Assembly: GCA_945888995.1 (NCBI GenBank)
Contig: CAMDBA010000003.1
Span: 64,279-128,278 of the forward strand
DNA: 64,000 nt
DNA from: a bacterium UBP8_UBA817
Lineage (GTDB): Bacteria > Margulisbacteria > Marinamargulisbacteria > CAMDBA01
Direction: 5' to 3'
Shown: piece after piece, positions 4,640-60,700 of the stretch
Numbering within the stretch: the first letter of the stretch is position 1
Layout: each line of letters starts with the position of its first letter
Translations under genes and position numbers: made by a program
The notes under the pieces: model-generated
The model's input: only the letters and a program-made list of their open reading frames with translations
Database searches by the model: none
What the model was told of the DNA's origin: nothing

Positions 4640-4648
4640 CGATATCCC

Positions 4649-4948: not shown

Positions 4949-4971
4949 AATACTTTCCTTTCAAAGAAAAA

Positions 4972-5048
4972 TGGTGTCCCCGACAGGAATTGAACCTGTG
5001 GCCTTCAGATTAGGAATCTGACGCTCTATCCAACTGAGCTACGAGGAC
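4972..5048 (-). tRNA. tRNA-Arg (anticodon CCT), CCA encoded
   Basis: The reverse complement folds as a cloverleaf: acceptor GTCCTCG/CGGGGAC, D arm GCTC-AGTTGGATA-GAGC, anticodon stem TCAGA/TCTGA with loop TTCCTAA, T arm ACAGG-TTCAATT-CCTGT, discriminator A plus CCA. Confidence 0.92.
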
Positions 5049-5101
5049 ACACGTGCAATGAAACTATAGCGAGGATCACCTTCAAGGTCAACTTAGGCCG
5101 G

Positions 5102-6484
5102 TTAGCCGATTAATTCCCTCAAAAAATTTCGGTCCAAAAAGTCCTGATAATACCGGTCAATCGACATCGCCAAAGCACGTGTCTGCTCGTCGGGATCTTC
5201 TTTTAATTGCGCCAGACGTTGAAGGCTTTGTCCGATCGGCTGCAGCTCGGTGATATCTTTTAATAACGCACCTTCAATATAACGCGGCACCAGATAACGA
5301 TGCAGATGTTCCGCCTTCGGTGATGGATGATAATTCAGATAGGCCCGATTAAAAAGCTGAATCAGGTACGTATCTTTTTTCTCGGACTTGGCCGCAAGAA
5401 GCTGACGAAGTAAGCCATGATAGCGCTCCGGGTCCGCCATTAAATCGGCCACCCACTCTCCCAACGTTTCAATCCGCTGAAACCCGAGCTCATGAATCTG
5501 GTGTTCGATATCCCAGTCTTTTTTGATCATCTCAAAGTATTGATCCCGCTTCAATGAATTCAGAAACAGATCAGCGGAGGCCTGTTGAACAAGTGAGCTA
5601 AACCGCATCACTTCTTCAGTACTCATTGGCTCCAGAATAAAACTTGCCTTGTTCGGATTAATATATCGAATCGCAGCCAACGGCTCCGACGGTTGCAAAA
5701 AATACGCTTCAAGATCCAACGCCAATACATCTTTTCCCCCATAGACTAAGCGAAGCCAATACCGATAGGTAAACTTTTTTGGCGTTTCCCCATTTTTCGG
5801 ATAATCTGCGACCTTCTGCTTAGCAAGACCGGGAGTCGCTTCAAGAAACTCCGGAATAAGCCAAACTGGCCGAAAGTCCAGCAAAGACTCTCCATAGCGT
5901 GCCTGAATCGCTTGAACCAAGCGAATCAAAAGCGTGACATCTTCTTCAGCACTATGAATCTGCGCGCCGGCTAATAACGCATGCGACGTCGCCACAGTTT
6001 CAAGGGTAAATGTATAATAAAAATTTCGGTCGGCTTTTTCAACCAATGCCCAAGGAAATTGATCGACATGGGTATAAGCCACCCACTGCACAAAATGCAG
6101 AACATCCAAATTCCCCATTTTTCCATCAAAGTACGGATTAATCCCATATCGAATCAATAAATTCCGCAAGAAATTCAGGTCAAATTGATTGGAATTATAT
6201 CCCACCAAGGTACAGTATCCATGTTGCTGAACCTGGCTTAATAAAAACCGGTAAATACGGACGGCCGCCTGAAATTCAGTATTACCCTCTTGTTGATGCG
6301 TTTCCAAATCAATTTTATTGGTCAAAATCGCATCAATTTCGGGAAGTTGAATCCGATTCAGGCGGATTTTTCCTGAACAGGTTTCGACCACCTGAAATTG
6401 ACTATCCACCACGACAAAGCAGTAAGTCAGAATCTGACCGAGTAGCTGCCTTGACGAGGTTTCGAAATCATAAAAAATATACAC
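5102..6484 (-). CDS. sbcB: exodeoxyribonuclease I-like DEDDh 3'-5' exonuclease
   Basis: 460 aa. Exo motifs YDFETS, GYNSNQFD and HSAEEDV in the order and spacing of E. coli ExoI, and a similar overall length. Confidence 0.6.
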   Translation of the reverse strand: MYIFYDFETSSRQLLGQILTYCFVVVDSQFQVVETCSGKIRLNRIQLPEIDAILTNKIDLETHQQEGNTEFQAAVRIYRFLLSQVQQHGYCTLVGYNSNQFDLNFLRNLLIRYGINPYFDGKMGNLDVLHFVQWVAYTHVDQFPWALVEKADRNFYYTFTLETVATSHALLAGAQIHSAEEDVTLLIRLVQAIQARYGESLLDFRPVWLIPEFLEATPGLAKQKVADYPKNGETPKKFTYRYWLRLVYGGKDVLALDLEAYFLQPSEPLAAIRYINPNKASFILEPMSTEEVMRFSSLVQQASADLFLNSLKRDQYFEMIKKDWDIEHQIHELGFQRIETLGEWVADLMADPERYHGLLRQLLAAKSEKKDTYLIQLFNRAYLNYHPSPKAEHLHRYLVPRYIEGALLKDITELQPIGQSLQRLAQLKEDPDEQTRALAMSIDRYYQDFLDRNFLRELIG

Positions 6485-10217: not shown

Positions 10218-11284
10218 TCTATGATTTTCAGACTTTCCGACACATCTTGTGCCCCTAAATAAGTATTAACCCTCTGAGTAATCTTTTCAAGCATCGGTGC
10301 AATTGTCGGATAATTCATCCGCTTAGGCCCCAGAACGCACACCATTCCCACGGACGTCTCCCCCATTTTCAAAGGAGAAATCAACAAGCCGCATTCCTTA
10401 AAATTTTCTACCCTATGTTCTTCTCCGATCACTATCTGTTGGTTTCCTTCCGACAAATAGTGAGACAAAACGCTGCATAATACCTTGGTTTCCTCTAATG
10501 CTTCCAGTACTTTTTGGGTATATTCAATATTCTTAAACTCAGGCAATCGCAACATTTTGGCAATTCCTTTAGTTAGAACAGAGCGATTCTGAGTAAAAGA
10601 AGTCGAAATCCGCTGCACCTGCACATAAAGCTGGGATAATACGATCTTGAACTGAGGCAATTCCGCCACTAGTTCATTTAATACTTGCTCATCCAAGCGA
10701 GCTAGAGATTTACCTGCAAGCTTCCGGGTCAATAATTGAGATAAGGCATTCAAGTCATCCTGACCAATCGCATCACTAATATTGAGTAAAAATTCTTGAT
10801 TTACCCCGATCGAATTCAGAATCACCACTAAAATTTTATTAAGATCCACCAGAACAAGCTGAATAAGCTTCAACGAATCCTGATACACATCCGGCGTCAT
10901 CACAATAATCGTATAATCAATTAACGACGTCAAAATAGACGTTACCTGAAAGACCACCTCTTCCAGATCCGATCCGACTAATAGCAATTTCTGCTCCATT
11001 TCCTCCGCTTGAATCGAAGGCACTGTATGCTGCGGCATGAGATCATCCACATAGAGCCGGTACCCTTTATCGGTAGGCACTCGCCCGGAAGACGTATGTA
11101 AATGCGCCAGATACCCATCTTTTTCCAGGTCGTTAAGCTCACCGCGAATGGTAGCCGCACTCAATTGGAACTGCCCCGAATCCAACAACGCCTTAGACCC
11201 GACAGGTTCTGCCGTTTTAATATAATTGGAGATCGTCGCCTCCAAAATTATTTTTTTACGCTCATCTAACTGCTTATTGATCAT
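10214..11284 (-). CDS. hrcA: heat-inducible transcription repressor HrcA
   Basis: N-terminal winged helix (ERKKIILEATISNYIKTAEPVGSKAL) and HrcA C-terminal domain. I prefer the ATG at 11284, because the GTG extension to 11302 would run into the CIRCE operator. Confidence 0.93.
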   Translation of the reverse strand: MINKQLDERKKIILEATISNYIKTAEPVGSKALLDSGQFQLSAATIRGELNDLEKDGYLAHLHTSSGRVPTDKGYRLYVDDLMPQHTVPSIQAEEMEQKLLLVGSDLEEVVFQVTSILTSLIDYTIIVMTPDVYQDSLKLIQLVLVDLNKILVVILNSIGVNQEFLLNISDAIGQDDLNALSQLLTRKLAGKSLARLDEQVLNELVAELPQFKIVLSQLYVQVQRISTSFTQNRSVLTKGIAKMLRLPEFKNIEYTQKVLEALEETKVLCSVLSHYLSEGNQQIVIGEEHRVENFKECGLLISPLKMGETSVGMVCVLGPKRMNYPTIAPMLEKITQRVNTYLGAQDVSESLKIIE

Positions 11285-16595: not shown

Positions 16596-19500
16596 TTAAT
16601 ACACCGCCAATTTAGTGTAGGCATACGACTTATTGCCGGAATTGTCAGTTGCCACCATTTTTGCAATATACATACCGGAACCGATAATTTGTCCGGAAGA
16701 AAGAATCCCATTCCATACAATCTGTTGATATCCGACCGTCGTATAGGTGGTATCGGATGTCCACACCACAATACCGTTCAAATTATAAAGATACAGCTGA
16801 ACACGGGCCGGTTGCGTAATCGAGAACCCAATTCGCAAATTACTTCCGACCGTATAAGGACTTGGATAAAACAAAAGATTATCAATGTTAATAGTAGATG
16901 AAATAGAAAAACGCATACTGGCCGTCGGCAATGTATTAGCATCCCGATCTTTAATGCCTAATTGAATAATCGCGGGCGTCGTTCCCAGATTAAAGATTTC
17001 CAAAGACCCGTTACTTCTTGTAAATGTGCTGGTCAAAGTAGATGACGGATAAGCCGCGCCTGATGTCGCTGTATGAATCAGCCTAATACTTCCCGCATCC
17101 AGAGCCGCTGCTTGATTCTGGAAATAGAGGATCAGACTGCTGTTAGCCGGAACTGCGTCATAATTTTGGAAAGGAATTAAAGTCCCCCCATTATTAACCT
17201 GAATAGAATCGATATAGGCAGGGAGTTGCCAATCATATTTTGTTTTACTAGAAGACGCGCTTAACTGCGCATAAGTTTGAGCACCGGCCACCCAGGTTGT
17301 TCCGCTGGATTTATAGCGGCCAACAGTCGCATAATTTCCGGAGGAGACAAGATAAGTCAAGACCCCGTCCACATAGATATTACCTTGAGAAAACACGGAA
17401 GACGGATTAATGGTAAAGCCCACCGTCACACCAGTTGAAGCCGCTAATGTGAACGGGAAAATTCGATTCGTGGTGGTCACCCATTCATAGGAAATATCCG
17501 CTCCCGATAAAGCTCCCAGATAAAATTTAGGTAAAAGTGAAGTAACCTGAATACTACCGGTGGTCGGATTTTCAATTCGAATATCGATATTAAATGTAGC
17601 CGCCGCATTGGTAACCGAAGTAATCGACGATAATACTTTTTTGATTGTCATTAAAGCCGATGTCACGTTCAGCGTGGCAGCATATTGCGGCACGGGCAAT
17701 TCCCCACCGAATACAGCTGAAATTCCGCCGGTCGCTGTAATATTATTGAGCTGAGCGGCAATATTAATAGTCGTGGTATTGGCCACATCACCGACATCAT
17801 ATGTAACAAAGAAACTATTTACGCCTTGAGGCAGTAAAAAGCTCGGCAAGTCCGCACGCAAGGTCGTATTAAATGATGAGGTAGTCGCTTCAAGCACATC
17901 CGAACTATCCAGAACCGAATTCTGATTCGCATCCATATAAAGAGAGACTCGGCTCACACCCGTATGATCATCGACAAAGCTTCCTTTATTATTTAGCACA
18001 CTAAACACAGCGGAGGTGACGGTCTGTTCAGCCCGAATCGTGACATAAAGCATTGGCACATTAACTTGGCCTCTTAAAGCTGAACCGGGAGATACACTTT
18101 GGATACTAACCGCTGAAAAAGTTGAGTTCTGAACCGGCAAAAATGCATCGGGACTGGCCTGAGCTGGCAGCGTTCCACTTAGCTCAATCGCAATAGTTGA
18201 AAGATTGGACGTGCCCACAGCGGCTTCTAAACGCGCATTCGCAGAAGAAATCAAATTACCTGAGGCATTGCGAATCTCTGTCGTACCGATACCAAGGTCA
18301 TAGACCGCAAAAATAGTTTTTTGATTACCGGTGGTGATATTGAGGCCGGCACCGTTCACCTGGATCGGGACGGGAGCCAACAGCGCAGTTTGACCTTGTC
18401 CGTTCCCTAAAATCAAAGACCCGATTAAGGTGTCTGAAACGGTCTCGTCATACGCATTATTGAGATTAGTATCTTCATACAAACGGACCCGCGTGATACC
18501 ATTCGTATTAGTTGGATTCGTTATATATTGAATTGTACCGGCATTACGAATCGTAATGGTGTTAACGGTAACCGATACATTTTCGCTCTTAAGCACAAAG
18601 CTAATAACCGGGATTTTCTGATTACCTCGAGAAAAATTACTGCTCGGAACAACATTGGTCACATCACTATAAACAAGTCCCGCAACTTTCGAAGAAGCAG
18701 GTGTAACCGGAGTCGCGTTAACCAGAGAAATCGCACGCCCGGAATCAGACCCGGTGCCGGTTATCGAAATAACCTGAGCTTTAACCTTTGCATCAGTCGA
18801 TACAGGGATACCCTTACCGATATCATATACAACAAACAGGTCTTTAGGCGTATTACTAGAAAGCGTAAAAGACGGCAAAAAGGAACTAAATGTCACCGTA
18901 CTTACCGAAGAAATCTGAGAACCGGTACGCTGTTTTAATACAGTCGTATCGATGGTAGGATCAAAAATCCCATTACTATTGGTATCAGCATATAAATAGA
19001 CCGTAGTCACTCCATTAGTACTACCATCGGTAATGGCAAAATTATTACTTTCATTTTGAACAGTGATACTAATATCATTGTTATTCATATCTTCACTTCG
19101 TGAAGTCAAAGTCAATCTCAACATCGGAACCAATGTCTGATTCGGCAATACAATCGTCGGCGCAATGGAATTAGCAGTTGCGGCAATACCTGTCACGGTA
19201 ATTGTATTACTAGTCACATTCCCCCCAACGTTAGTTGCAAGCGTGCCTAAAGTGCTTTCAACATAATTCAAAATCAGATTGGTTGTTGCCGCAGCCTGAG
19301 CCGAAGTATCCAGATCATAAACGACAAAAAAACCTTCACTGCGTCCGCTTGTAATGGAAGTCGGCGCTGAGAATTGAATGTTTTGTGAACTGACAGCAGT
19401 GCTTGTTAAACTGACGGTATTACCTTTTAACGTATCCACCACCGAATCAAACTGGCCGTCGCCGTTATCCTGATAAATATAAACCACTTTAACACCGGTT

Positions 19501-19784
19501 CCGAATTTAACCGTCGGACTAACGTTGCTAAATCCAACGCGTCTAACCGTATCATCTCCAGTTGCCAAGATATTAAAGTACAACATCGGCACTTTTGTAC
19601 TACCCTGAGGGGCTTTCGAAGCGGGAAGGGTCGAACTCTGAATAGCATTGGCAGCCAAAGCTGGGCTTGCCATAACTGCCACAAGGGCAATGACAAGAAC
19701 GACTTCTTTAATCAATTGAGTAGACGAATTAGTCAAAAACGAATGTAGTTTTGAATTAGACATGAATAAGACCGGGTTATGCAC
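16596..19784 (-). CDS. large repeat-containing cell-surface protein with C-terminal FlgD-Ig/T9SS-CTD-like beta-sandwich
   Basis: 1062 aa with a signal peptide (..LVIALVAVMASPALAANA). Four related modules and a Thr/Ser/Asn/Val-rich beta composition. C-terminus FYPSPYTVGSNLRIGFSITQPARVQLYLYNLNGIVVW...GMYIAKMVATD. The ATG at 19763 is an alternative start. Confidence 0.7.
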   Translation of the reverse strand: MHNPVLFMSNSKLHSFLTNSSTQLIKEVVLVIALVAVMASPALAANAIQSSTLPASKAPQGSTKVPMLYFNILATGDDTVRRVGFSNVSPTVKFGTGVKVVYIYQDNGDGQFDSVVDTLKGNTVSLTSTAVSSQNIQFSAPTSITSGRSEGFFVVYDLDTSAQAAATTNLILNYVESTLGTLATNVGGNVTSNTITVTGIAATANSIAPTIVLPNQTLVPMLRLTLTSRSEDMNNNDISITVQNESNNFAITDGSTNGVTTVYLYADTNSNGIFDPTIDTTVLKQRTGSQISSVSTVTFSSFLPSFTLSSNTPKDLFVVYDIGKGIPVSTDAKVKAQVISITGTGSDSGRAISLVNATPVTPASSKVAGLVYSDVTNVVPSSNFSRGNQKIPVISFVLKSENVSVTVNTITIRNAGTIQYITNPTNTNGITRVRLYEDTNLNNAYDETVSDTLIGSLILGNGQGQTALLAPVPIQVNGAGLNITTGNQKTIFAVYDLGIGTTEIRNASGNLISSANARLEAAVGTSNLSTIAIELSGTLPAQASPDAFLPVQNSTFSAVSIQSVSPGSALRGQVNVPMLYVTIRAEQTVTSAVFSVLNNKGSFVDDHTGVSRVSLYMDANQNSVLDSSDVLEATTSSFNTTLRADLPSFLLPQGVNSFFVTYDVGDVANTTTINIAAQLNNITATGGISAVFGGELPVPQYAATLNVTSALMTIKKVLSSITSVTNAAATFNIDIRIENPTTGSIQVTSLLPKFYLGALSGADISYEWVTTTNRIFPFTLAASTGVTVGFTINPSSVFSQGNIYVDGVLTYLVSSGNYATVGRYKSSGTTWVAGAQTYAQLSASSSKTKYDWQLPAYIDSIQVNNGGTLIPFQNYDAVPANSSLILYFQNQAAALDAGSIRLIHTATSGAAYPSSTLTSTFTRSNGSLEIFNLGTTPAIIQLGIKDRDANTLPTASMRFSISSTINIDNLLFYPSPYTVGSNLRIGFSITQPARVQLYLYNLNGIVVWTSDTTYTTVGYQQIVWNGILSSGQIIGSGMYIAKMVATDNSGNKSYAYTKLAVY

Positions 19785-41811: not shown

Positions 41812-42403
41812 CATCATTATCTGTATTTTTATAGTGACAGGAACAGCGCAAGTACAAGCCGACAGCTTGTATGATCGTAATCAGCCTTCCTTATTCAGCA
41901 CGGCCCGTCCTCCTAAAATCGGGGACGTGATCACCGTCTATGTGTCAGAAGCCTCTTCAGCGGCACAACAAGCCGGCACTAACACCTCTAAATCATCCAG
42001 CATTCAGGGAACATTTACTGATATCTGGAATCAGGTAGCCAACCCCGGCAGCAGCGAATCTTCACGTAAAGACAAGCAGATACAAATCGGCGGGGGTGAC
42101 AAGTATACCGGCGCAGGTAAAACTACCCGTACAAGCCAAGTCAAAGCCATTGTATCCGTAATGGTGACAGAAATCCTGGAAAACGGAAACCTATACATCG
42201 TCGGCGACCATCAGGTCAAAGTAAATGACGAAGCCGAAACCATTCACATTACAGGCATCATCCGTCCGATCGATATCGGACCTAACAACAGCATTTATTC
42301 GTACCAAATCGCCAAAGCCGAGGTTTCGGTTAAAGGCACCGGTGTTGTAGCTTCTAAGCAAACACCCGGCATCCTCACAAAAATGTTTGATTGGTTATTC
42401 TAA
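41786..42403 (+). CDS. flgH: flagellar L-ring protein FlgH
   Basis: Signal peptide then DSLYD, and FlgH core motifs (GDVITVYVSE, GNLYIVGDHQVKVNDE, ITGIIRPIDI). Confidence 0.9.
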   Translation: MCILRLLFSIIICIFIVTGTAQVQADSLYDRNQPSLFSTARPPKIGDVITVYVSEASSAAQQAGTNTSKSSSIQGTFTDIWNQVANPGSSESSRKDKQIQIGGGDKYTGAGKTTRTSQVKAIVSVMVTEILENGNLYIVGDHQVKVNDEAETIHITGIIRPIDIGPNNSIYSYQIAKAEVSVKGTGVVASKQTPGILTKMFDWLF

Positions 42404-43489
42404 ATGATATTAAAAAAACTAGCCCTCTGTTTATTAATTGTCTTACTCTTTTCTCAAACACTTCACGCGGAAGCTCAGCCTGTAAGGCTCAAAGATATTG
42501 GTAAAATCATCGAAGACAGGGGCAATCAGCTCTTAGGATTCGGATTGGTTGTAGGGTTACGGGGAAGCGGAGATTCCAGAGCCTCATTGTTCACGACAAA
42601 AGCCTTGACCAATTTACTTAAAAAATTGGGAATCACACCGGATGAGAAAGACTACTCATCACGAAATGTCGCAGCCGTTATGGTCACGACAACGCTGCCT
42701 GCTTTCGTGAAAAAAGGCCAGCAAATTCCCGTTGTCGTTTCCTCAATCGGAGATAGCACCAGCTTAGTCGGAGGAACCTTGCTGCTAACACAGCTTCAGG
42801 GATCGGACCTCGTGACCTATGCCGTAGCACAAGGACCCATTGTAGTCGGTGGATTTTCCGAGCAAACCTCTCGAGTGATGTATTCAAAGAACCAGTCTAC
42901 CGTAGGAAGCATTCCTCAAGGCGCGATTGTTGAAACCGAAATCCCGACAACCCTTCTGGATAGCACGAGCATCACCATTGTATTAAACAGAGCGGATTTT
43001 TTAACCGCCTCACGTGCAGCAAAAGCCATTCAAAACGCAGGCTTCCCAGGTGCCGTTGCGCTGGACTCCAACACCATTCGCATCCCTGTGCCAATACTCG
43101 ACAGTACGACATTCGTCGATACGGTGGCCCGATTGGAAAGTATTAAATTCGTACCGGATTCATCATCAAAAATTGTCGTAAATTCAAAAACCGGCACCAT
43201 TGTTATTGGTGAAATGGTCCGCTTATCTCCGGTGGCGATTACACACGGCAATATTTCAGTAAAAATTGCCGATCCCGATGAGTTCGGCTATATGCCAATA
43301 GAGGCCACTGAAGCCCCGTTAATTGTCAAAGAAAATGCAAGCAAACTTATTTATTTAAAACCAGATTCAACATTATCCAGCCTTGTAAAAGCGCTTAATG
43401 ACATCGGCGCAACGCCTAAAGATCTCATTTCCATTATCCAGGCGCTCAAAGAAGCCGGTGCGCTGGTTGCCACGATTGAAGTTTTATAG
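42404..43489 (+). CDS. flgI: flagellar P-ring protein FlgI
   Basis: Signal peptide, then VRLKDIGKIIEDRGNQLLGFGLVVGLRGSGD, and a C-terminal LNDIGATPKDLISIIQALKEAGAL. Confidence 0.95.
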   Translation: MILKKLALCLLIVLLFSQTLHAEAQPVRLKDIGKIIEDRGNQLLGFGLVVGLRGSGDSRASLFTTKALTNLLKKLGITPDEKDYSSRNVAAVMVTTTLPAFVKKGQQIPVVVSSIGDSTSLVGGTLLLTQLQGSDLVTYAVAQGPIVVGGFSEQTSRVMYSKNQSTVGSIPQGAIVETEIPTTLLDSTSITIVLNRADFLTASRAAKAIQNAGFPGAVALDSNTIRIPVPILDSTTFVDTVARLESIKFVPDSSSKIVVNSKTGTIVIGEMVRLSPVAITHGNISVKIADPDEFGYMPIEATEAPLIVKENASKLIYLKPDSTLSSLVKALNDIGATPKDLISIIQALKEAGALVATIEVL

Positions 43490-43492
43490 CCT

Positions 43493-43831
43493 ATGAGCAG
43501 CTTCGATCTGTCGCCGGTTTTTTCCCAGATAAATACCATTTCGCAGGCTAACTACTCAAAAATGGATAAAACGGAAAGAGCGAATGTCGAATTCCAAACC
43601 TTTTTGCTAAAAGAAATTTATCTTAAGTCTCTCGTCGCAAAATCTGAATTAATGAATGATGATGAGGAAGAAGCAGCAAACGAAGATCGGGATAGCAATA
43701 TTCCCAATCTCTCAAAAGGCCAAGTAGATACATATAATGACATTATGACTAACAACTTAGCTTATAAACTCGCTAAAGAAGATGTGTTCGGATTTAATAG
43801 GGTATTACAAAAAAGGGGGCCTAGTCTCTGA
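43493..43831 (+). CDS. rod-binding protein (FlgJ N-terminal domain-like, no muramidase domain)
   Basis: 112 aa. EFQTFLLKEIYLKSL and a C-terminal NNLAYKLAKEDVFGFNRVL resemble the rod-binding domain. Position directly after flgI. Confidence 0.55.
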   Translation: MSSFDLSPVFSQINTISQANYSKMDKTERANVEFQTFLLKEIYLKSLVAKSELMNDDEEEAANEDRDSNIPNLSKGQVDTYNDIMTNNLAYKLAKEDVFGFNRVLQKRGPSL

Positions 43832-43875
43832 GCCAGAAACAAGCCGTTAATATCGATAATTTAAAACATCAAGAA

Positions 43876-44589
43876 GTGGTTCAAAAAAAACACCAGGAAA
43901 AAATCCCGGCAGAATTTATTGAAGAACACCTCTCGATTATTGAGTCCGTCGCATCTGGCTTATCGGTAGGTGGCAAGCTGCCGCCCGGCATTGTTTTCGA
44001 AGATCTGGTCAGTTGGGGCGTCGAAGGTATTATTAAAGCCCGTAAGAGCTATGATCCGGATAAAGGCACGCAGTTTACAACCTATGCCTATTATCGGATC
44101 CGAGGCGAAATGTTGGACCGAATTCGTCGAGAGTGGAATTACCGGAACCCATCCGATTACAAACTCCAACAAGAGCGTATTCAGCAACGCATTGCTGAGA
44201 TGACCCGCGATTCTGTTGATTACGACGAAAACGGTAGCGGATCTGAAGAAGAAAAAGTCTCTCACTTAATCGCCAGTTCTGCCGTTGTATATTTACTTTC
44301 TTTGGAAGACATCAATATCGCCTCAACAATGCACGGCACGATGGACCCCGCAATAGAAGTCATCGACGAAGTGGAGCGGCTTCAAGACAAATCTGATCTT
44401 TGGGCTGAAATTAAAAATTTAGCTGAAGATGAGAAAAAAATCATCGAAATGTTCTACATTCAAGAAATGAAGCAAAAAGATATTGCCGAAAAACTTAACT
44501 TGTCTCGAAGTAAAGTCTGTCGCATTCATATGAAAGTGCTCGAAAAATTACGTCGGCGGCTACAGCGGCGGTTTAACCAACAAAACTAG
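43876..44589 (+). CDS. fliA: flagellar sigma factor FliA (sigma-28 family)
   Basis: Region 2 (FEDLVSWGVEGIIKARKSYDPDKGTQFTTYAYYRIRGEMLD) and a region 4 HTH (QKDIAEKLNLSRSKVCRIHMKVLEKLR). 237 aa, GTG start. Confidence 0.85.
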   Translation: MVQKKHQEKIPAEFIEEHLSIIESVASGLSVGGKLPPGIVFEDLVSWGVEGIIKARKSYDPDKGTQFTTYAYYRIRGEMLDRIRREWNYRNPSDYKLQQERIQQRIAEMTRDSVDYDENGSGSEEEKVSHLIASSAVVYLLSLEDINIASTMHGTMDPAIEVIDEVERLQDKSDLWAEIKNLAEDEKKIIEMFYIQEMKQKDIAEKLNLSRSKVCRIHMKVLEKLRRRLQRRFNQQN

Positions 44590-44593
44590 CGCT

Positions 44594-45025
44594 ATGAAAA
44601 AAAATCTTATCGCTCTTTTTTCTATTTTTTTTATCACACTACTTAGCCCTATCTGGGGTGCGGTAAGTCATAATACACGGACAAGCATCGATCCACCGCG
44701 ACGGCCTACCCTTATCGACAGTGTTATTTATGACCCGGTCTCACAGAAAGTTCGGAACGAAATTTACGCAACCAGTAAACGTCAGTCTGTCTATTCCTAT
44801 AATATTGCCAATTCAGCAACACCCGGATTTCGCCCGGTTCACCTTCCAAACGACCCCTCTGACATGAATACCCTCGGATCGAACGATACTAGTGGAGACT
44901 TTAACCTCGAATCAGAAATGGCCAAAATGAATGATAATAGAATGCGCCAAATGACCTTACTCAAAATCCTGTCGACCCGAAGCGCAATCCGTCAAAAAAT
45001 CATCACCATGGGAAAAGGAGGTTAA
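44594..45025 (+). CDS. flgB: flagellar basal-body rod protein FlgB (with N-terminal signal peptide)
   Basis: Rod motif SYNIANSATPGFRP and a C-terminal helical region. The N-terminus is MKKNLIALFSIFFITLLSPIWGAVS. Confidence 0.8.
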   Translation: MKKNLIALFSIFFITLLSPIWGAVSHNTRTSIDPPRRPTLIDSVIYDPVSQKVRNEIYATSKRQSVYSYNIANSATPGFRPVHLPNDPSDMNTLGSNDTSGDFNLESEMAKMNDNRMRQMTLLKILSTRSAIRQKIITMGKGG

Positions 45026-45027
45026 GT

Positions 45028-45477
45028 ATGCTTAAAGTAGGATTAATCATACTAAGCGGACTACTCATCCTCTCGTCCGGCGCTTGGGCCAACGGTTCGG
45101 ATGAAGCAATGGCCATCAGCACGAAAGGTATTTTAATTCAAAAAGCCCGGCTGAGATTAGTGGCAGAAAACGTTGCCAACGTTAATACGCTCAAGACCTC
45201 TACCGGACGTCCTTATCAGAAAAAAACAGCCTTAGTCGGCTCGGATAAAAACGGGGTAAAGCTGATCGGTATTCAAAAAAGCACTGCGCCGTTCCCTAAA
45301 AGATACGACCCGGCAAATCCTGCGGCGGACGATGAAGGCTTTGTTTATTTACCTAATGTAAATCTTGCAGAAGAAATGGTAGATTTGAGTTATACTAATA
45401 TATTGTATGATGCCAATCTCACTGCATATAAATCAGCTAAGAGCATGTACCAACAAGTTATTGAAATACTTAAATAA
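45028..45477 (+). CDS. flgC: flagellar basal-body rod protein FlgC (with N-terminal signal peptide)
   Basis: Perfect AAGGAGG SD 6 nt upstream. RLRLVAENVANVNT and a C-terminal LPNVNLAEEMVDLSYTNILYDANLTAYKSAKSMYQQVIEI. The N-terminus is MLKVGLIILSGLLILSSGAWANG. Confidence 0.9.
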   Translation: MLKVGLIILSGLLILSSGAWANGSDEAMAISTKGILIQKARLRLVAENVANVNTLKTSTGRPYQKKTALVGSDKNGVKLIGIQKSTAPFPKRYDPANPAADDEGFVYLPNVNLAEEMVDLSYTNILYDANLTAYKSAKSMYQQVIEILK

Positions 45478-45488
45478 AGGAGTCTTAA

Positions 45489-45836
45489 ATGCCCACAATT
45501 GATCCGATCACTTCACTTAACCTCGTAAACAACCTTAAAACAAACACTGTGGAAGAGGTTGTCTCACCTAAAAACGTCGAACCTCTCTTAAGAAAAGAAG
45601 GCCTACATGTCACGCCCTTCCAACAATTTTTGGATCAGGCGGTAGAAGCACTTCAGGGCATCAGTAATATTGAATTCAAAGCCAATGACCTCTCTCAACA
45701 ATATATAGAGGGCACCGCATCCGTCGAAGATGCTGTCTTTTCTACCAGCAAATTAAATATGGCCATGTCATTAGCAACGTCGGTAGTAAACTCCAGCATT
45801 CAAACCTTTAAAGAAATCCAACAGATTCAGGTTTAG
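45489..45836 (+). CDS. fliE: flagellar hook-basal body complex protein FliE
   Basis: 115 aa. F(Q)QFLDQAVE...NDLSQQY and a C-terminal helix ending TFKEIQQIQV. AAAGGAG RBS. Confidence 0.85.
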   Translation: MPTIDPITSLNLVNNLKTNTVEEVVSPKNVEPLLRKEGLHVTPFQQFLDQAVEALQGISNIEFKANDLSQQYIEGTASVEDAVFSTSKLNMAMSLATSVVNSSIQTFKEIQQIQV

Positions 45837-45865
45837 TTTGAGAGACTAGGAAGGAAGGAATAATA

Positions 45866-47542
45866 GTGTCAGACGAAGATATTGATTTAGACGAGGAATC
45901 CTCCTCCCACTCAGGGTTTCTTAGTAAAAAACGACTCTTATTTTTTGGTGTAATTGCAGCAGTATTATTGCTCATTATCTTCTTGGTATTCCTACGCTCT
46001 CCGAGTAATGGAAAAAAGAAAATAATGAACGCCAATTTAACCAAAGAAGAACGGTCGTCGCTTTTACAGGACGAACAGGTTAAAGAACTAGAAGTCGCCC
46101 AAAAAAAAGAGCTAGAACGCCTCTCCAAAGTCAAATACGAAAAGCTATATGAACAGCTATCCGGCGACCAAGCCGCGAATGTATTACAAGAGCTCAGTTT
46201 CGATGGCATTTTGTTCAAGACCGAACAAAAGGGTAAATATTACAACATCATGGTCGACAAAAACCGGTTTGTCGAAGCCCAGAACAAGCTCGCGATCAAA
46301 GGCCTGCCTTCAGGTGGAATCAAAGGCTATGAAATATTCGACAATGCGTCGAATATGGGTGTCACGGAATTCGATAAACGAATCAGGCTGGTTCGTGCAC
46401 TATCCGGTGAGCTTGAAAAAGCCATTATGCAAATTAACGGCATTATCAGTGCCAAGGTCCAAGTGGTTATGCCGGAACAACGGCTATTTACCGTCTCACA
46501 GCCCCCTGTCACAGCCGCCATTCTGATTCGGAAATCACTAGGTAAAGTCATTGATGACGAAATGGTCTATGGCATTATTCAATTGGTTGCGAACGCCGTT
46601 GAAAATCTTCAGCCTGAAAACGTCAGCCTAGTCGATACAGACGGACATGTTCTCTCGACCGGGGTATTTGAGCGCATTGCCGAAAAATACCGTAAAAAGA
46701 ACATTGCACTGCCCTACAGCAACAAATTATACCCCAATCACTTCGCGGATCTTCCTGTCGATGAATTAGGTCTCAATCCCTCAACAGATGACCCGACATT
46801 GCTCGGCGTCCATGACACGGTTAAAAGCTGGCTGAAAGCTCAAAAAGAATACGAAAAAAACCTGACCGAGAAAATTAAGCTCTTTTTAATGGGTCTATTA
46901 CCTGAAAAGAGCTATAAAATCGCGCTCAGCACCGAAGTAAATCCCGAATCCAGCAAAGGATTCGTAATTAAACGTACGTCCGTTGGGATTCTCATCAATA
47001 AAAAATATCCCTCGCTTTATACAACCGCAAAAAAAGCAGAGATTACACGAGCGATTTCCGGTGCAATCGGGTACAATCGTCAACGTGATTTTATCCAAGT
47101 AAACCCTGTTGACTTCTCGTTTTTCACCTCAGAAACGGTCGCAACGCCTGAAATAAAAGCGATTCCACAAGTAGTCGCACCTGTAGTCGTCCTCAAAGCC
47201 CCGGATCAGAAAAAATCGATGGGCATCAAGATGAAGACAGAAAAAGCAACCCAACATTGGGCGCATATACTAAAAAAATACTGGCGCTACATTGCCGTCG
47301 TAGGAGGCGTTATATTAGCCATCGGGCTTGTCGGTTTCTTGATTCGCCGCTGGCGGATCGCCAAATCGCATGAAGTCCACCTCGGCGGAACCAGAGAAAC
47401 AGACTTTTCGTCGATCAGCCGTGAAATTAACGGTGAGAAGAAAATAGAACGGCTCCGAGAGATTGCCCTCCAAAACCCAGCCGCTCTGGCACATCTAATG
47501 GAAGAATGGCTCCAATCCGAATATGAAGAGGTCGCATTATAA
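45866..47542 (+). CDS. fliF: flagellar MS-ring protein FliF
   Basis: N-terminal TM helix, a YscJ/FliF ring-building domain (LSGDQAANVLQELSFDGILFK...), a second TM helix near the C-terminus and a C-terminal FliG-binding helix. GTG start with a GGAAGGAAGGA RBS. Confidence 0.9.
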   Translation: MSDEDIDLDEESSSHSGFLSKKRLLFFGVIAAVLLLIIFLVFLRSPSNGKKKIMNANLTKEERSSLLQDEQVKELEVAQKKELERLSKVKYEKLYEQLSGDQAANVLQELSFDGILFKTEQKGKYYNIMVDKNRFVEAQNKLAIKGLPSGGIKGYEIFDNASNMGVTEFDKRIRLVRALSGELEKAIMQINGIISAKVQVVMPEQRLFTVSQPPVTAAILIRKSLGKVIDDEMVYGIIQLVANAVENLQPENVSLVDTDGHVLSTGVFERIAEKYRKKNIALPYSNKLYPNHFADLPVDELGLNPSTDDPTLLGVHDTVKSWLKAQKEYEKNLTEKIKLFLMGLLPEKSYKIALSTEVNPESSKGFVIKRTSVGILINKKYPSLYTTAKKAEITRAISGAIGYNRQRDFIQVNPVDFSFFTSETVATPEIKAIPQVVAPVVVLKAPDQKKSMGIKMKTEKATQHWAHILKKYWRYIAVVGGVILAIGLVGFLIRRWRIAKSHEVHLGGTRETDFSSISREINGEKKIERLREIALQNPAALAHLMEEWLQSEYEEVAL

Positions 47543-48057
47543 TGATTAGCGGTAAACAAAAAGCCCAATTACTACTTGCCTATCTGGGACCGGTCGGAAA
47601 AAACGTCCTCCAGAAACTTTCTGCTGAAAGCGCCACATTCCTGACCTCCCATGTCGAAAATGTAGCCACCGGTGATCCGGCTTTATTATCGGCTATTTAT
47701 GAAGAAGTCGAAGAAAAATTAACCGAAAGCCCCGCCGACTCGTTCGCACAAACGCAGCAAGAAGATGAAGAAGTCTATTCAGATTTCGGAGATGAAGCCA
47801 GTCCAAGCGAACCCGAAACAGCACCCGCGATTGCGGCCGGATATAATTTCCGACAAATGGCCTCATTACTGACTCATGAAAAACCTCAGATCATTGCATT
47901 TAGCCTTTCAAAAATGGAAGAAAGCTTAAGAAACAATATTATAGAATGCCTTCCTGATGATGTCAGGCAAGACGTGGAGAGGCGTTCGATTGAGGCCATT
48001 CCGCTATCAGACAAGGTATTTGATAGTATCTGGGCTAAGCTGACTAGCGTTAATTAA
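47542..48057 (+). CDS. fliG: FliG-like protein comprising only the N-terminal and middle (ARM-M) domains
   Basis: GKQKAQLLLAYLGPVGKNVLQKLSAE (FliG-N) and LLTHEKPQIIAFSLSKMEESLRNNIIECLPDDVRQDVERR (EHPQ-type middle domain). 171 aa versus about 330 for canonical FliG. ATGA-type overlap with fliF. Confidence 0.65.
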   Translation: MISGKQKAQLLLAYLGPVGKNVLQKLSAESATFLTSHVENVATGDPALLSAIYEEVEEKLTESPADSFAQTQQEDEEVYSDFGDEASPSEPETAPAIAAGYNFRQMASLLTHEKPQIIAFSLSKMEESLRNNIIECLPDDVRQDVERRSIEAIPLSDKVFDSIWAKLTSVN

Positions 48058-54711: not shown

Positions 54712-57700
54712 TTAGTCTGATTCTGAGCCGTTACCATCGCCGGCTGGTGATTCTGAGTCTGAGGCTGAGGCTCCATCATTACTCAATGAGAGTGGGGGTG
54801 AGCCTGGGGAAACAACTTGAGAGAGCTTACCCGATTTAGCTCCTCTACCTAAAACAGGGACACGAGACCCCCCCCTCGAGCTTCTACCTAATGGCGTTTC
54901 ATCTGCACCAGGACTAGCCGTCATGGCGAGTAGTTTACTCCAGCGAGATTCAGAAATACTAGCACCAACAGCCGCGCGGCTACTCATTGAAATGGCTGAG
55001 CCTCCTCGTTGCCCGCCCGATACGAAGACTGCTTTAGCAGGTGGTGCAGGAATTTGAAACTTTAGATCTTTGAACAACGCCTTAAAAAGGGGGACATCCT
55101 TATATGGAGATAAGATTTCCATAATAGCGGCCTTCGGAGAACTCTCTGCAGCAGGTGCAGCTTCTGTGGCCTTCCCAGCACCCCCAGAGGCACCAGAGAC
55201 CGCGGCACTATCGGCAGGAATCAAGTGGCGCGCCGCCGCAAGACGAACTGTATCCGAATAGCCTACCTGAAGGTACTGCGCAGCCAGATCGACGCTACCC
55301 TTACTAATCGCATCCTGAATATGTGCTTCAAGCGCTGCAAGCGCTACCTGAAAAGGGTCTGTTTTCTTAGAAAGGCTTCCGAAAACCCCAGCCGAAGATG
55401 AAGATGAAACCCGTTGCTGAACAGCATTAAAGATCTCCAGAGACTCTTTAGACGGAACCCCCTCCTTAAACCTGACTACCAACGCCGCTAATGCCGCGTT
55501 TCTAGCATCAGAATTATGATCTGGGCCTAAAAATAAAATCAACTTATTCGTATTGGGAGAGGCACTGCGCGAAGAAGAGGCTGCATCCACTTGGCGCGCC
55601 TCCTCAGCTATGAACCGGACACGATCCGCTCCCTTAGAACGAATAAATGCCTTCACTTCCGAATTCGTACCCATACTCGTTGCTAAGGAAACATACACCA
55701 CGCTTTTCTGATCATCGGTTAAAAAGGGATAGAGATTCATCAATGCCCGCGCCGCCGGCAACGATGCCCCATCCTCTGATGATCCATTAGATAGAAAGTC
55801 ACCTAGAGCCGTCACAACAGCCACTGCTGAAGAGTGATTCTTATGATAAGAGAGCACCACTTCATCGATTGCCACTAGCTTCTGCGTAAGCGTCATACCC
55901 TGAAGAGTGGAAGTGACATCTGTACGGAACGCGTGAACCACAGCCCTGATGCCAGCAAGGGTCTCCTCATTACGCGCATCCTTATCACCAAACTGTTTTT
56001 TCAGAACACTGCGCATCGCATCATTCGCCTCGGCTGGACCGGCTAAGAGTTTCAAGCACGTCGCTGTCGCCGCATCCTTAACCGACTGGTCCAACCCAGT
56101 AGTCGCCAAGACCTGAAGACGTTTCACAACAACGTTGCCGCTATCCGTGCATAGCGCAGCAAATTGGCCCAGAAGCGGTACGACTTTGAATTGAACCAAA
56201 GCAAGTCCGCTGGTAGATACTCTCAGAAGGAAGTCACGCACGTCATTTGAGGTCGCCAGCTCAGGATAACTAGACATCCAGAATGCCAATAGGTCTAAAT
56301 GCTGGCTAATTGAAACAAAGTCAGGCGCGCCTTTGCTACGCAGTTTAGCGTTAACAGCCGTTGTAATATCACTTAAAATCGGGCCACCCTCGTTACCAGC
56401 GGCAATACCTTCATGAAGAGTATGAAGTGTAGATTCAGCTTTTTCAGTGGAAGGCGATTCGCGAAGGGTAGATGATGTAGATGAAGTGCTCACTACCGGA
56501 CCAGAATCCAGCGACGATAAAAAGGGAGTGCTCGATCCACCAGCAACCCCTCCACTTGAATACAATTCAGACACTTCGCCTCTCGATTTTACAGCCTCCC
56601 CTGCAGGAACGCCCATCCAGGCTAACGCCTCTGCCGCCTGAGAACGAAGCTGAGCGAACTCGGCAGCACCAGTAGCAGGGACTTTATCCTGCATAATCTC
56701 CTTAAATATAGTCTTAATACCTATTTGCACGCCCGTATCCATCAACGGATATAAAACCCGCAGAGTCTGCAAGGCCATCAACCGTTCCCGAGACGCATAG
56801 GTGACGCCCTGAGCAGGCGATGATGCAATACCCCCCACAAACCCTAACAAGGCAACCACAGCCTTACCCTCGCGCTTGTCATCGGTCATCACCCTCTTCG
56901 TAACCGCATCTAACATCATGGCCACTGCGCGTGGACGAAGCTCAAGTGAATCGCGCAGAGTCCCTAATGTATCGCCAAAGCGGTCTACAAGGTCGGAATC
57001 CGATTTTTGCGCCATTAAATCTCGAACGCCTGCAAGGACACTTTGTTTAGCCTTGTTCTCATCAGTACCCACTCGGATAGCGCCGTTCGGCATGAAGCTA
57101 GAGGGCGAGGATCCTAAACCGGCATCTTTCATCCCGATTTTCACCATATGGCGCATGTTGTTACCATCAGCATCTCCTAAACCCATCATAGCAGGATCAG
57201 AGCTATACAACTGGAAAAGTCCGTCTTTTGCCGCTTTTTCCACCACCGAAGATTTATCTTTGGCCAATTTCGCTAATAACATCACGCTTAGCTCACCACA
57301 GGTCGTACCCGCAGACGAGCCCCTTAACTTGAGCGGATGAGCGAGCCCAAGGGTGAGGACACGCCGCGCCCGTTCCCAGGACTTAGATGGATAGTCCTTT
57401 GTCAGTAAGGCCAAGTCAGTCGCCGCTTTCACCACTTCCGCCTTCAAGGCCGCATTCGGCTGCGACGCACATGAGCCAAGCAATGTGGCAATTCGAGTCC
57501 CATATACGGCTGCAATAGAGACCTCGCTATCGTTATGCGTAACCTTTAAATCCATTAAGGGTCTTAAAAAGGGGACTAGCTGTAAGGCCGTATCAACATC
57601 ATTATCCTTAAATGCCGCGTCTATCATCGGGATAAGTAGCTCTATCACTTCCTTATGCTGAGCATTGTCTTTAGAATTCACAGCAGCTTTGAGCCTATCG

Positions 57701-60700
57701 GCCAATGCAACAATCGGGCGGAACTTCTCACTAGCAGTAACTGCGCCGGAGAGCTGACCACGATAAATAGAGACCAACCGGGCAGTGTCTGCCGGCGAAA
57801 TGCTTGAAAGCGGCAGAATTCCTTTAGGCTTCGGAGAGCGAGAAGAGTCAGGCACAGAGTCGCTATCTTCACTCGTAGCTTCCACAGTCGCCTCTCCAGA
57901 CCCACCCTGCGCCAACGCCATCATAATCTCACTATGGCGACGGCGCAGTTCTGGACGATCTTTCTTAGGGGCCTCGTTCAGTGTCTTTTCGGATCCCAGT
58001 AAGCGCATGGTTTCCAGAAAGTCTCCTCGAATAGTGGCAGCGGCAGCGGCAGCGGCAGCGTCAGCGGGCTTGAGAGCGGCAGCGTCAGCGGGCTTGAGAG
58101 CGGCAGCGTCAGCGGCAGCGGCAGCGGGAATCGCATGAGCGCTAGTGTCCATAATGCTCATCAGCGTCTTCAGCTGGGCGCCAGTAAATGCCCGGCCGGA
58201 TTTGCCTTGGGTCATTTTTGTCACGAGATGCTTTAACTCTGCGAGCAAGCCAATCTGTACTTCAGTATCCTCAATATGCGCTAAGCCCTGCGCCATTTCA
58301 AGGAATGTAGTAACAGCCTGGGCATCATAATTATGAACACCCTCAACAAACACTTCCGGAACCGAATCTCCAACTGAAGCCGCTTGGAAATCCAAAACTG
58401 TATGACCACTATGGCGAACGATGCCGGGTTTGGATAATGCCAGACTGACTCGTCTGAATACGCTGATTAACTCGAGTCTAAACGCTTGCAACGAGTCTGC
58501 AGCACCTGGATATTTCATAGTCGCAAGAGTATCTAAGACGCGGACATGTACGGCAGAGTCGATCGCAGGCGAGCATTTAATCTCTGCGACTTTATCGCCT
58601 AGTAACTTACCCATACGAGGTAATAAAGTAAGAAGATTCTCATCCTTTAGATTATCGGGATTAGAAAGGAAAGAATTGGCGGTGGTAAGAAAAGCAGCTT
58701 GCAGCGCAGGCGTACTAACTAAACCAGAGGCCTTCAAACACTCAGTAAAAGGTAGATTATTGATAATAATGACCTTCGCATCAGCTTCAGGATGTCCTAG
58801 AGCCCGTAAAGTTGCGAGACTCGCATCAACATCGGCGCGACCTCTGCCTAAATACAATTCGATAGCTTTAATCAGATGAGGGTAGACACCAGGCGTGCCT
58901 TGATTTACACCAAGTGGGGCAAGAGCCGCTATAATGCCATCTACATTAGCAGGAGTCATCGCTACAGTTTCAGGCGGGAGTTTGCTCGCAACATTAATAC
59001 CGGCACATGCTGCAGGAATAGCTTGAACTTGAACCTCTAATACGCCTAGATCAGCTACAAGCTGATTAACACAGTCTATAAATGACTGTGCAGTCTGAGC
59101 CTCAGGAAGCGCGTTATACAGTGCCACAGATTGAGTAACTAGGGCACCCCGAACGGCGTCCTTATCAGCAGCTGCATCAAGTCCTCTATAAATCGCTTTA
59201 ATATCTTCAGGAGTTAAATGGGCGGGGAGAAGAGTGGCAATATTTTTGGCCTGCATCGCTCGAGCTAGATCATCCCCACCATAGTTCAAAGCAGTTAACT
59301 GTTCCCGTAATCTATTCACAGAACCAGCAAAGTCCGCTGCAGTCCCGTTATCAATTACTTGCTCCCAAACACGCTGCGCTAAAGGCTCCCGAAGTGCATT
59401 AGGAATATCATCACCCATTCCACCATCCGCTCTCACAAGATAAGTATATAAAGCAACACACGCCTCAGGCGTCAAATTCCCAGCAATGGTGGTCATAAGG
59501 GCCGTCAAAACCAGATCATGATACCGATCCAACTCATCCCCAGAGATTGTGGGAATAGCATCTAGAAAACTTACAATATGCGCTTGCAGATAGGCATTAT
59601 CCATCCTCGCAGGAAGAACTTGGGCTTGCTGCATTAAAGTCGCTAAGAAAAGGACTCTAAGCGCCGCTTGACCCTCCCCTAACTGGCCAAATTGCGCAGC
59701 CAGGCCTGCTGGATTATCAGATAATCTTGAGTGAAGAATACCAGTAAGCTGGGTAAGAGCCTCACCGCGAGGTAACCTCAGTCCCTCTACTAATACCGGC
59801 ACATAGGTCTGAACAATATGAAGAAGAGCGCCCCTATCATCGGTAGCTAGAGCTAGGACTCGGTCTAGTAAAATTGGCCGCACTACTGCCTTAGGCGCAT
59901 CACCGTTAATACCCGCATACACATCCTGAATCTGAGCAGCTGTAAGCCCATCAGGCAATTTGGCACGACATAGGTCTGCAAACTCATCCGGAGCAATTGC
60001 AGTATAAGCGGCATGAAAGTCATTCACAAACGCAATATAAGCAGCAGCCTCATTAACCTCAACTGCCTGCGCAAGCGCCGACAACCGGCTAGTCAACACA
60101 GCTTTAACCGCAGGGTCATCACCTAAATCGCCCAAATCCCCATGCGCTTCCAGTAGAGCACCAGTAGTATCCATATCCGCTACGAGAGGCCTCAGTTTAG
60201 CCCCTATAGGCAATGAATCAGCAGCAACACCCAGAGTTCTAAGAGTCTCTCGACACTCTACTACAAGACCCGTAAAGGCGCCTATCTGAACCACAGTCCT
60301 TACAAAATGAGCCGAAACAGCCGCGCCCAAGGGCGCAGATAGTAGTACCTTATCAGCAGCATTAGTTATCTCATCATGGATTCCGGCTATATCCGCTAAA
60401 GTCATATCGGCTGGCAAAAAGGGAGTAATCTGACCCGATAAGGCGTTCATTTTGACCGTAGCTGCCGCATCATCACCTGACGACAAAGCCACATGAAAAT
60501 CACGAAGATGGTTCACGAGCTGCACAAAGCCAGCTACCGCTAACCGGTCAGGAGCAGCACCAGCTAGAGTGCCAAGTTTAGCCTCAATAAGCACAAGAGC
60601 CTCATGATGCAATGGACCTAAAAGTCCAGGCGTCTCATCAGCATAGTAAGTCATTATGCTAGCCATAGTCAGATCAAGCGCAGCTAACCTAGTATTCACC

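Follow-up and report, generated by a model that had tools for sequence, protein, structure and literature searches.

How rod subunits reach the rod is the question raised by a flagellar module on a 64,000-nucleotide stretch of a Marinamargulisbacteria genome (contig CAMDBA010000003.1; this whole stretch is referred to as the window). The flagellum is the textbook case of inside-out assembly: the subunits of rod, hook and filament are thought to pass through a type III channel and to insert at the tip. Three rod proteins of the window, FlgB, FlgC and FlgF, nevertheless begin with segments that resemble the signal peptides of Sec-exported proteins. The window comes from an uncultured marine bacterium of the Margulisbacteria, a phylum that is sister to the Cyanobacteria; in the literature we found neither a paper on axial flagellar proteins with Sec signals nor a description of Margulisbacteria flagella. 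Here we show that the signal-like N-termini of FlgB, FlgC and FlgF are real, conserved and selectively distributed, and we propose Sec routing as the best available, though unproven, interpretation of them.

Signal-like N-terminal extensions of FlgB, FlgC and FlgF

Each of the three proteins has at its N-terminus a basic n-region, a hydrophobic core of 12-20 residues and a small-x-small site. The N-termini read MKKNLIALFSIFFITLLSPIWGAVSH in FlgB (44594-45025) and MLKVGLIILSGLLILSSGAWANGS in FlgC (45028-45477); FlgF (39480-40259) likely starts at the ATG at 39480 and not at the TTG at 39357 given in the mechanical list of open reading frames (ORFs), and its extension is listed with the other features in Table 1. 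A sequence-only reading that preceded our analysis had described the feature for FlgB and FlgC. Their ORFs, translations and motifs were reproduced exactly and the feature is present in both proteins, but the set was incomplete, as FlgF carries it too. The small-x-small sites of that reading hold for FlgC (AWA/N, the slash marking the predicted cut), whereas the FlgB site as drawn (WGA/V) has a tryptophan at −3; because tryptophan is disfavoured there by the −3/−1 rule, IWG/A or AVS/H is the better FlgB site.

The hydrophobic segments are add-ons in front of otherwise canonical rod proteins, and the alignments bear out their earlier description as N-terminal extensions. FlgC matches three solved FlgC chains in the PDB (E 1.6e-20, 6.9e-15 and 4.9e-14) over residues 28-148, and all three alignments show a register shift of exactly 21 residues (query 28/32/36 corresponding to chain 7/11/15), so that cleavage at AWA/N would yield the canonical FlgC N-terminus. 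FlgC also matches Pfam Flg_bbr_C (28 bits versus a cut-off of 23), and flgC is positioned between flgB and fliE, as for canonical FlgC. FlgB scores 20.3 bits against Pfam Flg_bb_rod, just below the cut-off of 20.7; as a single sequence it reaches the PDB at E 0.24 and, in a homologue search, finds no match but itself. With a profile of 12 FlgB orthologues, solved FlgB chains are the best matches (E 2.5e-5 and 2.5e-4), and in every relative flgB is flanked by fliA and flgC (our clade set comprises 10 syntenic genomes, namely the window and nine relatives, L007-L015). Compared with the signal-less orthologues of L007 and L008, FlgB of the window has 36 additional residues: 23 signal-like residues and a linker of 13. 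FlgF matches Pfam LlgE_F_G_D1 (33.6 bits versus a cut-off of 27), contains the TPGF motif and is encoded immediately upstream of flgG in all relatives; for its C-terminal helix domain there was no Pfam match at E <= 0.01. Among FlgC proteins, the A-x-N-[ILVM]-[AGS]-N-type motif begins at residue 40-57 in carriers of the extension and mostly at residue 20-29 in non-carriers.

FlgB, FlgC and FlgF are members of their families, and what differs is their predicted routing. They resemble FlgB, FlgC and FlgF of Salmonella and Escherichia coli (PDB 7CGO, 7BIN and 7E80) in family, N-terminal rod motif and C-terminal helix, and their genes stand in the same neighbourhoods, flgB-flgC-fliE-fliF and flgF-flgG; unlike the canonical proteins, which are type III substrates with a disordered, non-hydrophobic start, they carry 21-36 extra signal-like residues.

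The type of signal was assessed with our own heuristic script and internal controls, with FlgI and FlgH as positives and FlgG and FliE as negatives. In each of the three, K/R follows Met1 directly, the uncharged stretch spans 15-25 residues, and there are a helix breaker and small residues at −3/−1; the mean Kyte-Doolittle hydrophobicity of the core is ~3 over 8-9 residues. The n-region has a net charge of +1 to +3 in every carrier scored as signal-peptide-like, and under a permissive rule −3/−1 sites are found in all carriers, AEA/K being the FlgF site of the window. Median uncharged length and core hydrophobicity are 18.5 and 3.25 for FlgB, 19 and 3.2 for FlgC, and 16 and 3.06 for FlgF, while the controls of the same genomes give 19.5 and 3.46 for FlgI and 17.5 and 3.14 for FlgH; by these simple metrics, the extensions are indistinguishable from the bona fide Sec signals that FlgI and FlgH of these operons carry. 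With such cores, they do not have the non-hydrophobic, disordered extreme N-terminus of early type III substrates.

Three other classes of signal were ruled out. The N-terminal regions of FlgB, FlgC and FlgF in the window contain no cysteine, whereas a lipoprotein (signal peptidase II) signal would have one in the lipobox [LVI][ASTVI][GAS]C that closes its h-region; their n-regions (MKKN in FlgB, MLK in FlgC and MIPFR in FlgF) contain no twin arginine of a twin-arginine translocation (Tat) signal; and no carrier has the prepilin (class III) pattern of glycine at −1 and F/M-T-L-x-E with glutamate at +5.

Conservation in Marinamargulisbacteria and occurrence elsewhere

Eight of the relatives (L008-L015) are the closest loci, at 41-57% identity, in a scan that covered each GTDB species with one genome; their metagenome-assembled genomes are labelled Candidatus Marinamargulisbacteria or Margulisiibacteriota, or just 'bacterium', and L007 is a contig of the Joint Genome Institute. 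The same FlgC as in the window is also present on several ENA and Logan metagenome contigs. We read every stop-to-stop frame of the clade with all possible starts and scored it with a simple heuristic script: a hydrophobic signal-like N-terminus is present in FlgC in 10/10 cases, in FlgF in 11/11 and in FlgB in 8/10, versus 0/10 each for FlgG and FliE. The FlgB extension is absent from the sister pair L007 and L008, and in L013 it needs an alternative TTG start; sharing among orthologues is thus complete for FlgC and FlgF and partial for FlgB. FliE (45489) and FlgG (40306) of the window, whose N-termini had been described as normal, are indeed non-hydrophobic there as they are across the clade. 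Pairwise identity is 0.19-0.28 in the extension versus 0.40-0.54 in the remainder of the protein while hydrophobicity is kept, which is the usual behaviour of signal peptides. One relative, L011, has tandem FlgF paralogues (3545-4351 and 4420-5220), both with signal-peptide-like N-termini.

The same appearance could arise if starts had been mis-called, that is, if translation began downstream and the hydrophobic codons were an untranslated leader; a downstream flgC start near the canonical position does exist in the window (Met27) and in L009, L011, L013 and L015. However, flgB of the window offers no second in-frame start (ATG, GTG or TTG) ahead of the conserved rod motif, just as the sequence-only reading had stated, and flgC of L007, L008, L010, L012 and L014 has no usable downstream start near the domain, so the FlgC segment must be translated. 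Strong Shine-Dalgarno sites precede the upstream starts: the AAGGAGG that had been noted 6 nucleotides before the flgC ATG of the window is present, and GGAGG-like sites stand before the extension-including flgC starts in most clade genomes. The flgC start lies 2 nucleotides after the flgB stop in the window, and tight coupling of the extension-including start to the upstream flgB stop is conserved. Furthermore, ~30 genes from 10 genomes, with identities of 30-57%, have kept both the open frame and the signal-like profile. We rejected a wrong start codon on the absence of alternatives (flgB of the window and flgC of five relatives) and on the upstream Shine-Dalgarno sites, and we regard it as hardly credible.

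The flgB-flgC junction shows a peculiarity of its own. The FlgB C-terminus LGKGG, in the window (45010-45025) and in orthologues, is coded by GGA AAA GGA GGT; these bases are under two constraints, because the codons of the conserved FlgB C-terminus double as the flgC Shine-Dalgarno site.

Outside the clade, the GTDB scan also yielded 72 other FlgC loci, mostly of Alphaproteobacteria, none of which has a hydrophobic stretch (0/72): the distance from the start to the RLRVIAENIAN motif is 21-24 residues in every one, and hydrophobicity stays <2.0 over 11 residues. The extension is therefore, as had been supposed, not common to ordinary motile bacteria, as sampled by these mostly alphaproteobacterial loci. 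In some of the 72, tblastn alignments appeared to reach query residues 6-13; this proved to be read-through into upstream non-coding or flgB sequence. Given the clade counts for FlgC, FlgF and FlgB, the zero counts for FlgG and FliE, and the absence from these 72 loci, the recurrence of the extension across the clade genes is more than chance.

When 1.84 billion cluster representatives were searched exhaustively with phmmer, 2209 FlgC-like proteins were retrieved, and the best 150 of these were examined. A hydrophobic extension is present in 21 of these best 150 representatives, which rules out that the trait is unique to the window genome; the remaining 129 stay <2.3 over 9 residues. Carriers occupy three places of a FlgC neighbour-joining tree, which is indicative only, FlgC being a short protein: a large contiguous group in which the Margulis clade is joined by relatives that include P0031 and P0033; a second, small group within alphaproteobacteria-like FlgC (P0086, P0124 and P0136); and the pair P0030 and P0039.

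Gene contexts agree with the tree that the carriers are different lineages. The sister locus L092 has the module order of the window followed by fliH-fliI-fliJ, with the extension in FlgC only; L091 reads flgH-flgI-x-fliA-flgB-flgC-fliE-fliF-short fliG-fliHIJ, with the extension in FlgC. L090 has a standard operon, flgB-flgC-fliE-fliF-fliG (344 aa)-fliH-fliI-fliJ, in which FlgC is extended and FlgB is normal; L093 reads flgB-flgC-fliE-fliQ with both FlgB and FlgC extended, and L088 reads flgB-flgC-fliE with FlgC extended. The label 'alphaproteobacteria-like' for the non-Margulis carriers L088, L090 and L093 denotes FlgC tree position and gene context only. The extension is rare but recurrent: at least two further lineages have it, and it co-occurs there with neighbouring flagellar type III genes. 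FliE and FlgG are never carriers, and where one protein alone has the extension, it is always FlgC.

Export route of the extended rod subunits

Our analysis suggests that the FlgB, FlgC and FlgF segments are cleavable signals for Sec and signal peptidase I, giving a hybrid Sec and type III assembly of the rod; judged from sequence, we consider this about an even call. Somewhat more tentatively, we propose that Sec delivers part of the axial structure, which would then assemble from the periplasm, both in Marinamargulisbacteria and, independently, in at least two further lineages. The earlier interpretation is supported in part: the segments are genuine add-ons to canonical rod domains, they are translated and conserved throughout a class-level clade, and they are Sec-like by simple metrics; passage through Sec and cleavage are proposed. 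A hydrophobic N-terminus, being first out of the ribosome, would be captured by the signal recognition particle (SRP) and Sec; the chain would cross the inner membrane through SecYEG and would then be cut after the small-x-small site. FlgC would thereby become a periplasmic subunit whose N-terminus is residue 1 of canonical FlgC, the register being established by alignment and the cleavage being presumed. The subunits, needed in few copies (five FlgB, six FlgC and five FlgF in the Salmonella rod; PMC12403130), would join the growing rod from its periplasmic side, templated by FliE/FliPQR. Flagellar type III export would be kept for the proteins without such segments, namely FliE, FlgG, FliK and the FlgJ-like cap; the outcome would be an axial structure assembled by both routes. 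FlgC was apparently the first subunit to switch, with FlgF and FlgB following in Marinamargulisbacteria.

Sec-type signals on rod proteins are a variant of an otherwise known flagellar system, and several known systems share features with it. The spirochaete sheath protein FlaA is Sec-exported, its signal is cleaved, and it assembles in the periplasm onto a type III-built axial structure; FlaA is a precedent for mixed routing, but it is an outer sheath protein unrelated to the axial family, whereas here the axial family itself is concerned. Like type IV pilins and type II pseudopilins, the extended proteins are fibre subunits with an N-terminal hydrophobic helix, which in pilins is inserted by Sec before assembly; unlike pilins, they have no prepilin peptidase site (Gly −1, Phe/Met +1, Glu +5), and the helix lies outside the conserved mature domain. 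Their signal-like N-terminal segment is similar in kind to the signals of Sec-dependent FlgI, FlgH and FlgA and to the FliP leader, a cleavable signal of 21 residues that is cut at Ala21/Gln22 (PMC12403130); these four are ring or membrane components and none is axial (rod, hook or filament), unlike FlgB, FlgC and FlgF.

A comparison of docking motifs bears on the type III side of the scheme. Salmonella rod and hook subunits dock at FlhB via a short hydrophobic motif, residues 36-40 (FLTLL) in FlgD and, according to a ΔGRM construct, residues 39-43 in FlgE (PMC8983047); the position of the motif in FlgB and FlgC, after the PGF motif, was inferred from FlgD and FlgE. At this position the window has LPNDP in FlgB and VGSDK in FlgC. 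F-x-x-x-[LIM] is present at the analogous position in 2/8 FlgB carriers versus 4/4 signal-less FlgB proteins of the same group, and the strict F-x-x-x-hydrophobic motif is present in 0/30 FlgC carriers versus 33/119 non-carriers (0/3 versus 13/15 in the alphaproteobacteria-like FlgC subgroup), counts that are confounded by phylogeny and depend on the inferred FlgB/FlgC register. Because carriers tend to lack the motif, there is a hint that type III docking may no longer be selected in them.

Several points weigh against delivery by Sec, among them this confounding and the fact that the docking motif is missing from most non-carrier FlgC proteins too. The −3/−1 test as applied is permissive and is often satisfied by chance. 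Type III genes adjoin those of carriers (fliH, fliI and fliJ in L090, L091 and L092; fliQ in L093), so a type III route is available to them. To our knowledge, every axial protein characterised so far is exported through the type III channel and inserts beneath the cap at the tip; a periplasmic subunit would have to enter under a FlgJ-like cap, inside the collar of the membrane/supramembrane (MS) ring, a step that the Sec scheme does not account for. A second, signal-less set of flgB, flgC and flgF may also lie outside the 64 kb window.

Export might still run through the type III channel if the segment were an enlarged form of the small hydrophobic N-terminal type III export signal, with the long stretch helping to open the FliPQR gate or binding a lineage-specific gate variant. 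Rod and hook subunits do need small non-polar residues at the extreme N-terminus, and a spacing of at least 19-30 residues is required between this signal and the docking motif downstream (PMC8983047); carrier genes share operons with fliHIJ or fliQ, and neighbouring axial proteins are clearly type III substrates. The known signal of early subunits, however, consists of a few small non-polar residues with a docking motif at that distance downstream (FlgD 2-SIAV-5; Bryant et al. 2022, PMC8983047), not of a full n-h-c signal with a K/R-flanked, Leu/Ile/Phe-rich core of 12-20 residues and an AxA-type site. A docking-type motif tends to be missing from the carriers, the opposite of what continued docking predicts, and the canonical N-terminus is intact downstream of the add-on. 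A hydrophobic N-terminus of this kind is moreover expected to be captured by SRP and Sec. We consider an enlarged type III signal unlikely.

Were the segments Sec-inserted and left uncleaved, they would act as signal anchors: proximal rod subunits would remain tethered in the inner membrane and would form either a pilin-like reservoir there or a static anchor for a basal body that does not rotate. Several of the uncharged stretches are as long as 21-25 residues, and the structure might not rotate, because FliG of the clade lacks the C-terminal torque domain; yet the median uncharged stretch, polar c-region included, is 16-19 residues, a length that equals that of the FlgI and FlgH signals and falls short of the FliF transmembrane segment, L090 has the FlgC extension alongside a full-length FliG of 344 aa, and there is neither a prepilin motif (Gly −1, Glu +5) nor a lipobox. 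The linker from the segment to the first rod helix is only 0-13 residues, and in Salmonella structures FlgC lies above the FliE and FlgB layers (PMC12403130); since the linker is so short and FlgC so placed, a tethered FlgC could hardly reach its position, and membrane tethering would be sterically unlikely. We judge it quite improbable overall. It is also conceivable that the extended proteins are diverged paralogues that build a different periplasmic structure, with canonical flgB, flgC and flgF elsewhere making the real rod. The cluster is indeed odd, with a short FliG and no fliHIJ, flhA, fliPQR or hook genes, either in the window or, across 10 genomes, at distances of up to 10 kb, and L011 has two FlgF paralogues. 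Both of these paralogues carry the extension, however; no second copy of the genes is found in the 64 kb, the canonical slots flgF-flgG and flgB-flgC-fliE-fliF are occupied in a conserved module, and in L090, L092 and L093 the carrier is the sole FlgC of an otherwise standard flgB-flgC-fliE operon. Diverged paralogues are thus a very improbable explanation, and we retain cleavable Sec signals as the reading to be preferred.

The flagellar module and its surroundings

Table 1. Positions in the window of the signal-like extensions, the proteins that carry them and the internal controls
Feature	Position	Strand	Basis or remark
Flagellar module of 14 genes, conserved	37801..48057	+	Pfam and ORF reading
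FlgF signal-like extension MIPFRLILFGLLFLLFTSIAEA, AEA/K site, then KSY	39480..39545	+	
FlgF-like rod protein, predicted mature part	39546..40259	+	Pfam LlgE_F_G_D1; directly upstream of flgG
FlgG distal rod protein, ordinary N-terminus, internal negative control	40306..41112	+	0/10 with hydrophobic N-terminus
FlgH L-ring protein, signal peptide ending QVQA/DSLY, without lipobox, positive control	41786..42403	+	
FlgI P-ring protein, signal peptide MILKKLALCLLIVLLFSQTLHA/EAQ, internal positive Sec control	42404..43489	+	
FlgB signal-like extension MKKNLIALFSIFFITLLSPIWGA; n-region MKKN, hydrophobic core, Pro at −5	44594..44662	+	only possible ORF start
FlgB predicted mature part: 13-residue linker and canonical proximal-rod domain (SYNIANSATPGF ... 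MGKGG)	44663..45025	+	
Shine-Dalgarno site AAGGAGG	45015..45021	+	6 nucleotides upstream of flgC ATG, inside FlgB C-terminal GKGG codons
FlgC signal-like extension MLKVGLIILSGLLILSSGAWA, classical AxA site AWA/N	45028..45090	+	21-residue offset to solved FlgC
FlgC predicted mature part, canonical proximal rod protein	45091..45477	+	PDB and Pfam matches
FliE, ordinary N-terminus, internal negative control	45489..45836	+	0/10 with hydrophobic N-terminus

The module of the window comprises, in order, fliK, a stand-alone gene for an FlhB C-domain, flgF, flgG, flgA, flgH, flgI, a small FlgJ-like gene, fliA, flgB, flgC, fliE, fliF and a short fliG, and the identical 14-gene order is found in 9/9 Marinamargulisbacteria relatives. 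The gene directly 3' of fliK (39068-39415, +) is kept in all relatives. FlgG, FliE, FliK and the FlgJ-like protein of the window have polar, ordinary starts; FliE of L009-L015, at about 10400-11100 in the coordinates of these loci, has long, non-hydrophobic N-terminal extensions (169-213 aa in total, versus 107-115 aa in the window, L007 and L008). FlgH of the window and of L007-L015 has a signal peptidase I-type site (A/DSL, then W or Y) and no lipobox cysteine, unlike FlgH of enterobacteria, which is a lipoprotein.

FliG of the window (47542-48057, +) has 171 aa and, by Pfam, consists of the N and middle domains without the C-terminal torque/stator-contact domain. A short FliG is also found in all nine Margulis relatives (169-243 aa), in L091 (193 aa) and in L092 (165 aa), whereas the 344-aa FliG of L090 is normal; the basal body would not rotate unless the FliG C-domain, on its own or within a full FliG, is encoded elsewhere. 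In Marinamargulisbacteria the module stops at the short fliG in 10/10 genomes, while the sister loci L091 and L092 run on into fliH-fliI-fliJ; fliHIJ has been either relocated or lost in Marinamargulisbacteria. No flhA, flhB, fliPQR, fliHIJ, hook or stator genes are present in the 64 kb window, in a further 10 kb upstream or within 10 kb of the cluster in the nine relatives, and the search for them turned up housekeeping genes only. For the window organism, a type III system is inferred only indirectly: FlgG, FliE, FliK and the FlgJ-like protein are conserved without signals, and sister loci carry fliHIJ.

Other genes of the window lie outside the module. A secretin gene (Secretin and Secretin_N; 33109-35778, −) stands ~2 kb upstream of it on the opposite strand and is preceded by three small same-strand ORFs without a Pfam match. 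An ORF of 2456 aa (54712-62082, −) has no Pfam match, and an ORF of 1062 aa (16596-19784, −) has only a weak match, to a C-terminal FlgD immunoglobulin (Ig)-like domain (22.9 bits, below the 27-bit cut-off).

In conclusion, rod proteins with signal-like N-termini mark a poorly known phylum with an otherwise odd flagellar module, in which FliG is short and FlgH is not a lipoprotein. The finding bears on the templating of the rod on FliE/FliPQR and on the real role of the rod cap, as well as on the evolution or loss of type III export signals in axial proteins. If Sec delivery of FlgB, FlgC and FlgF is true, the rule that every axial subunit travels the type III channel would not be universal; rod subunits could join the template from outside, and the first layers of the rod would be supplied from the periplasm.

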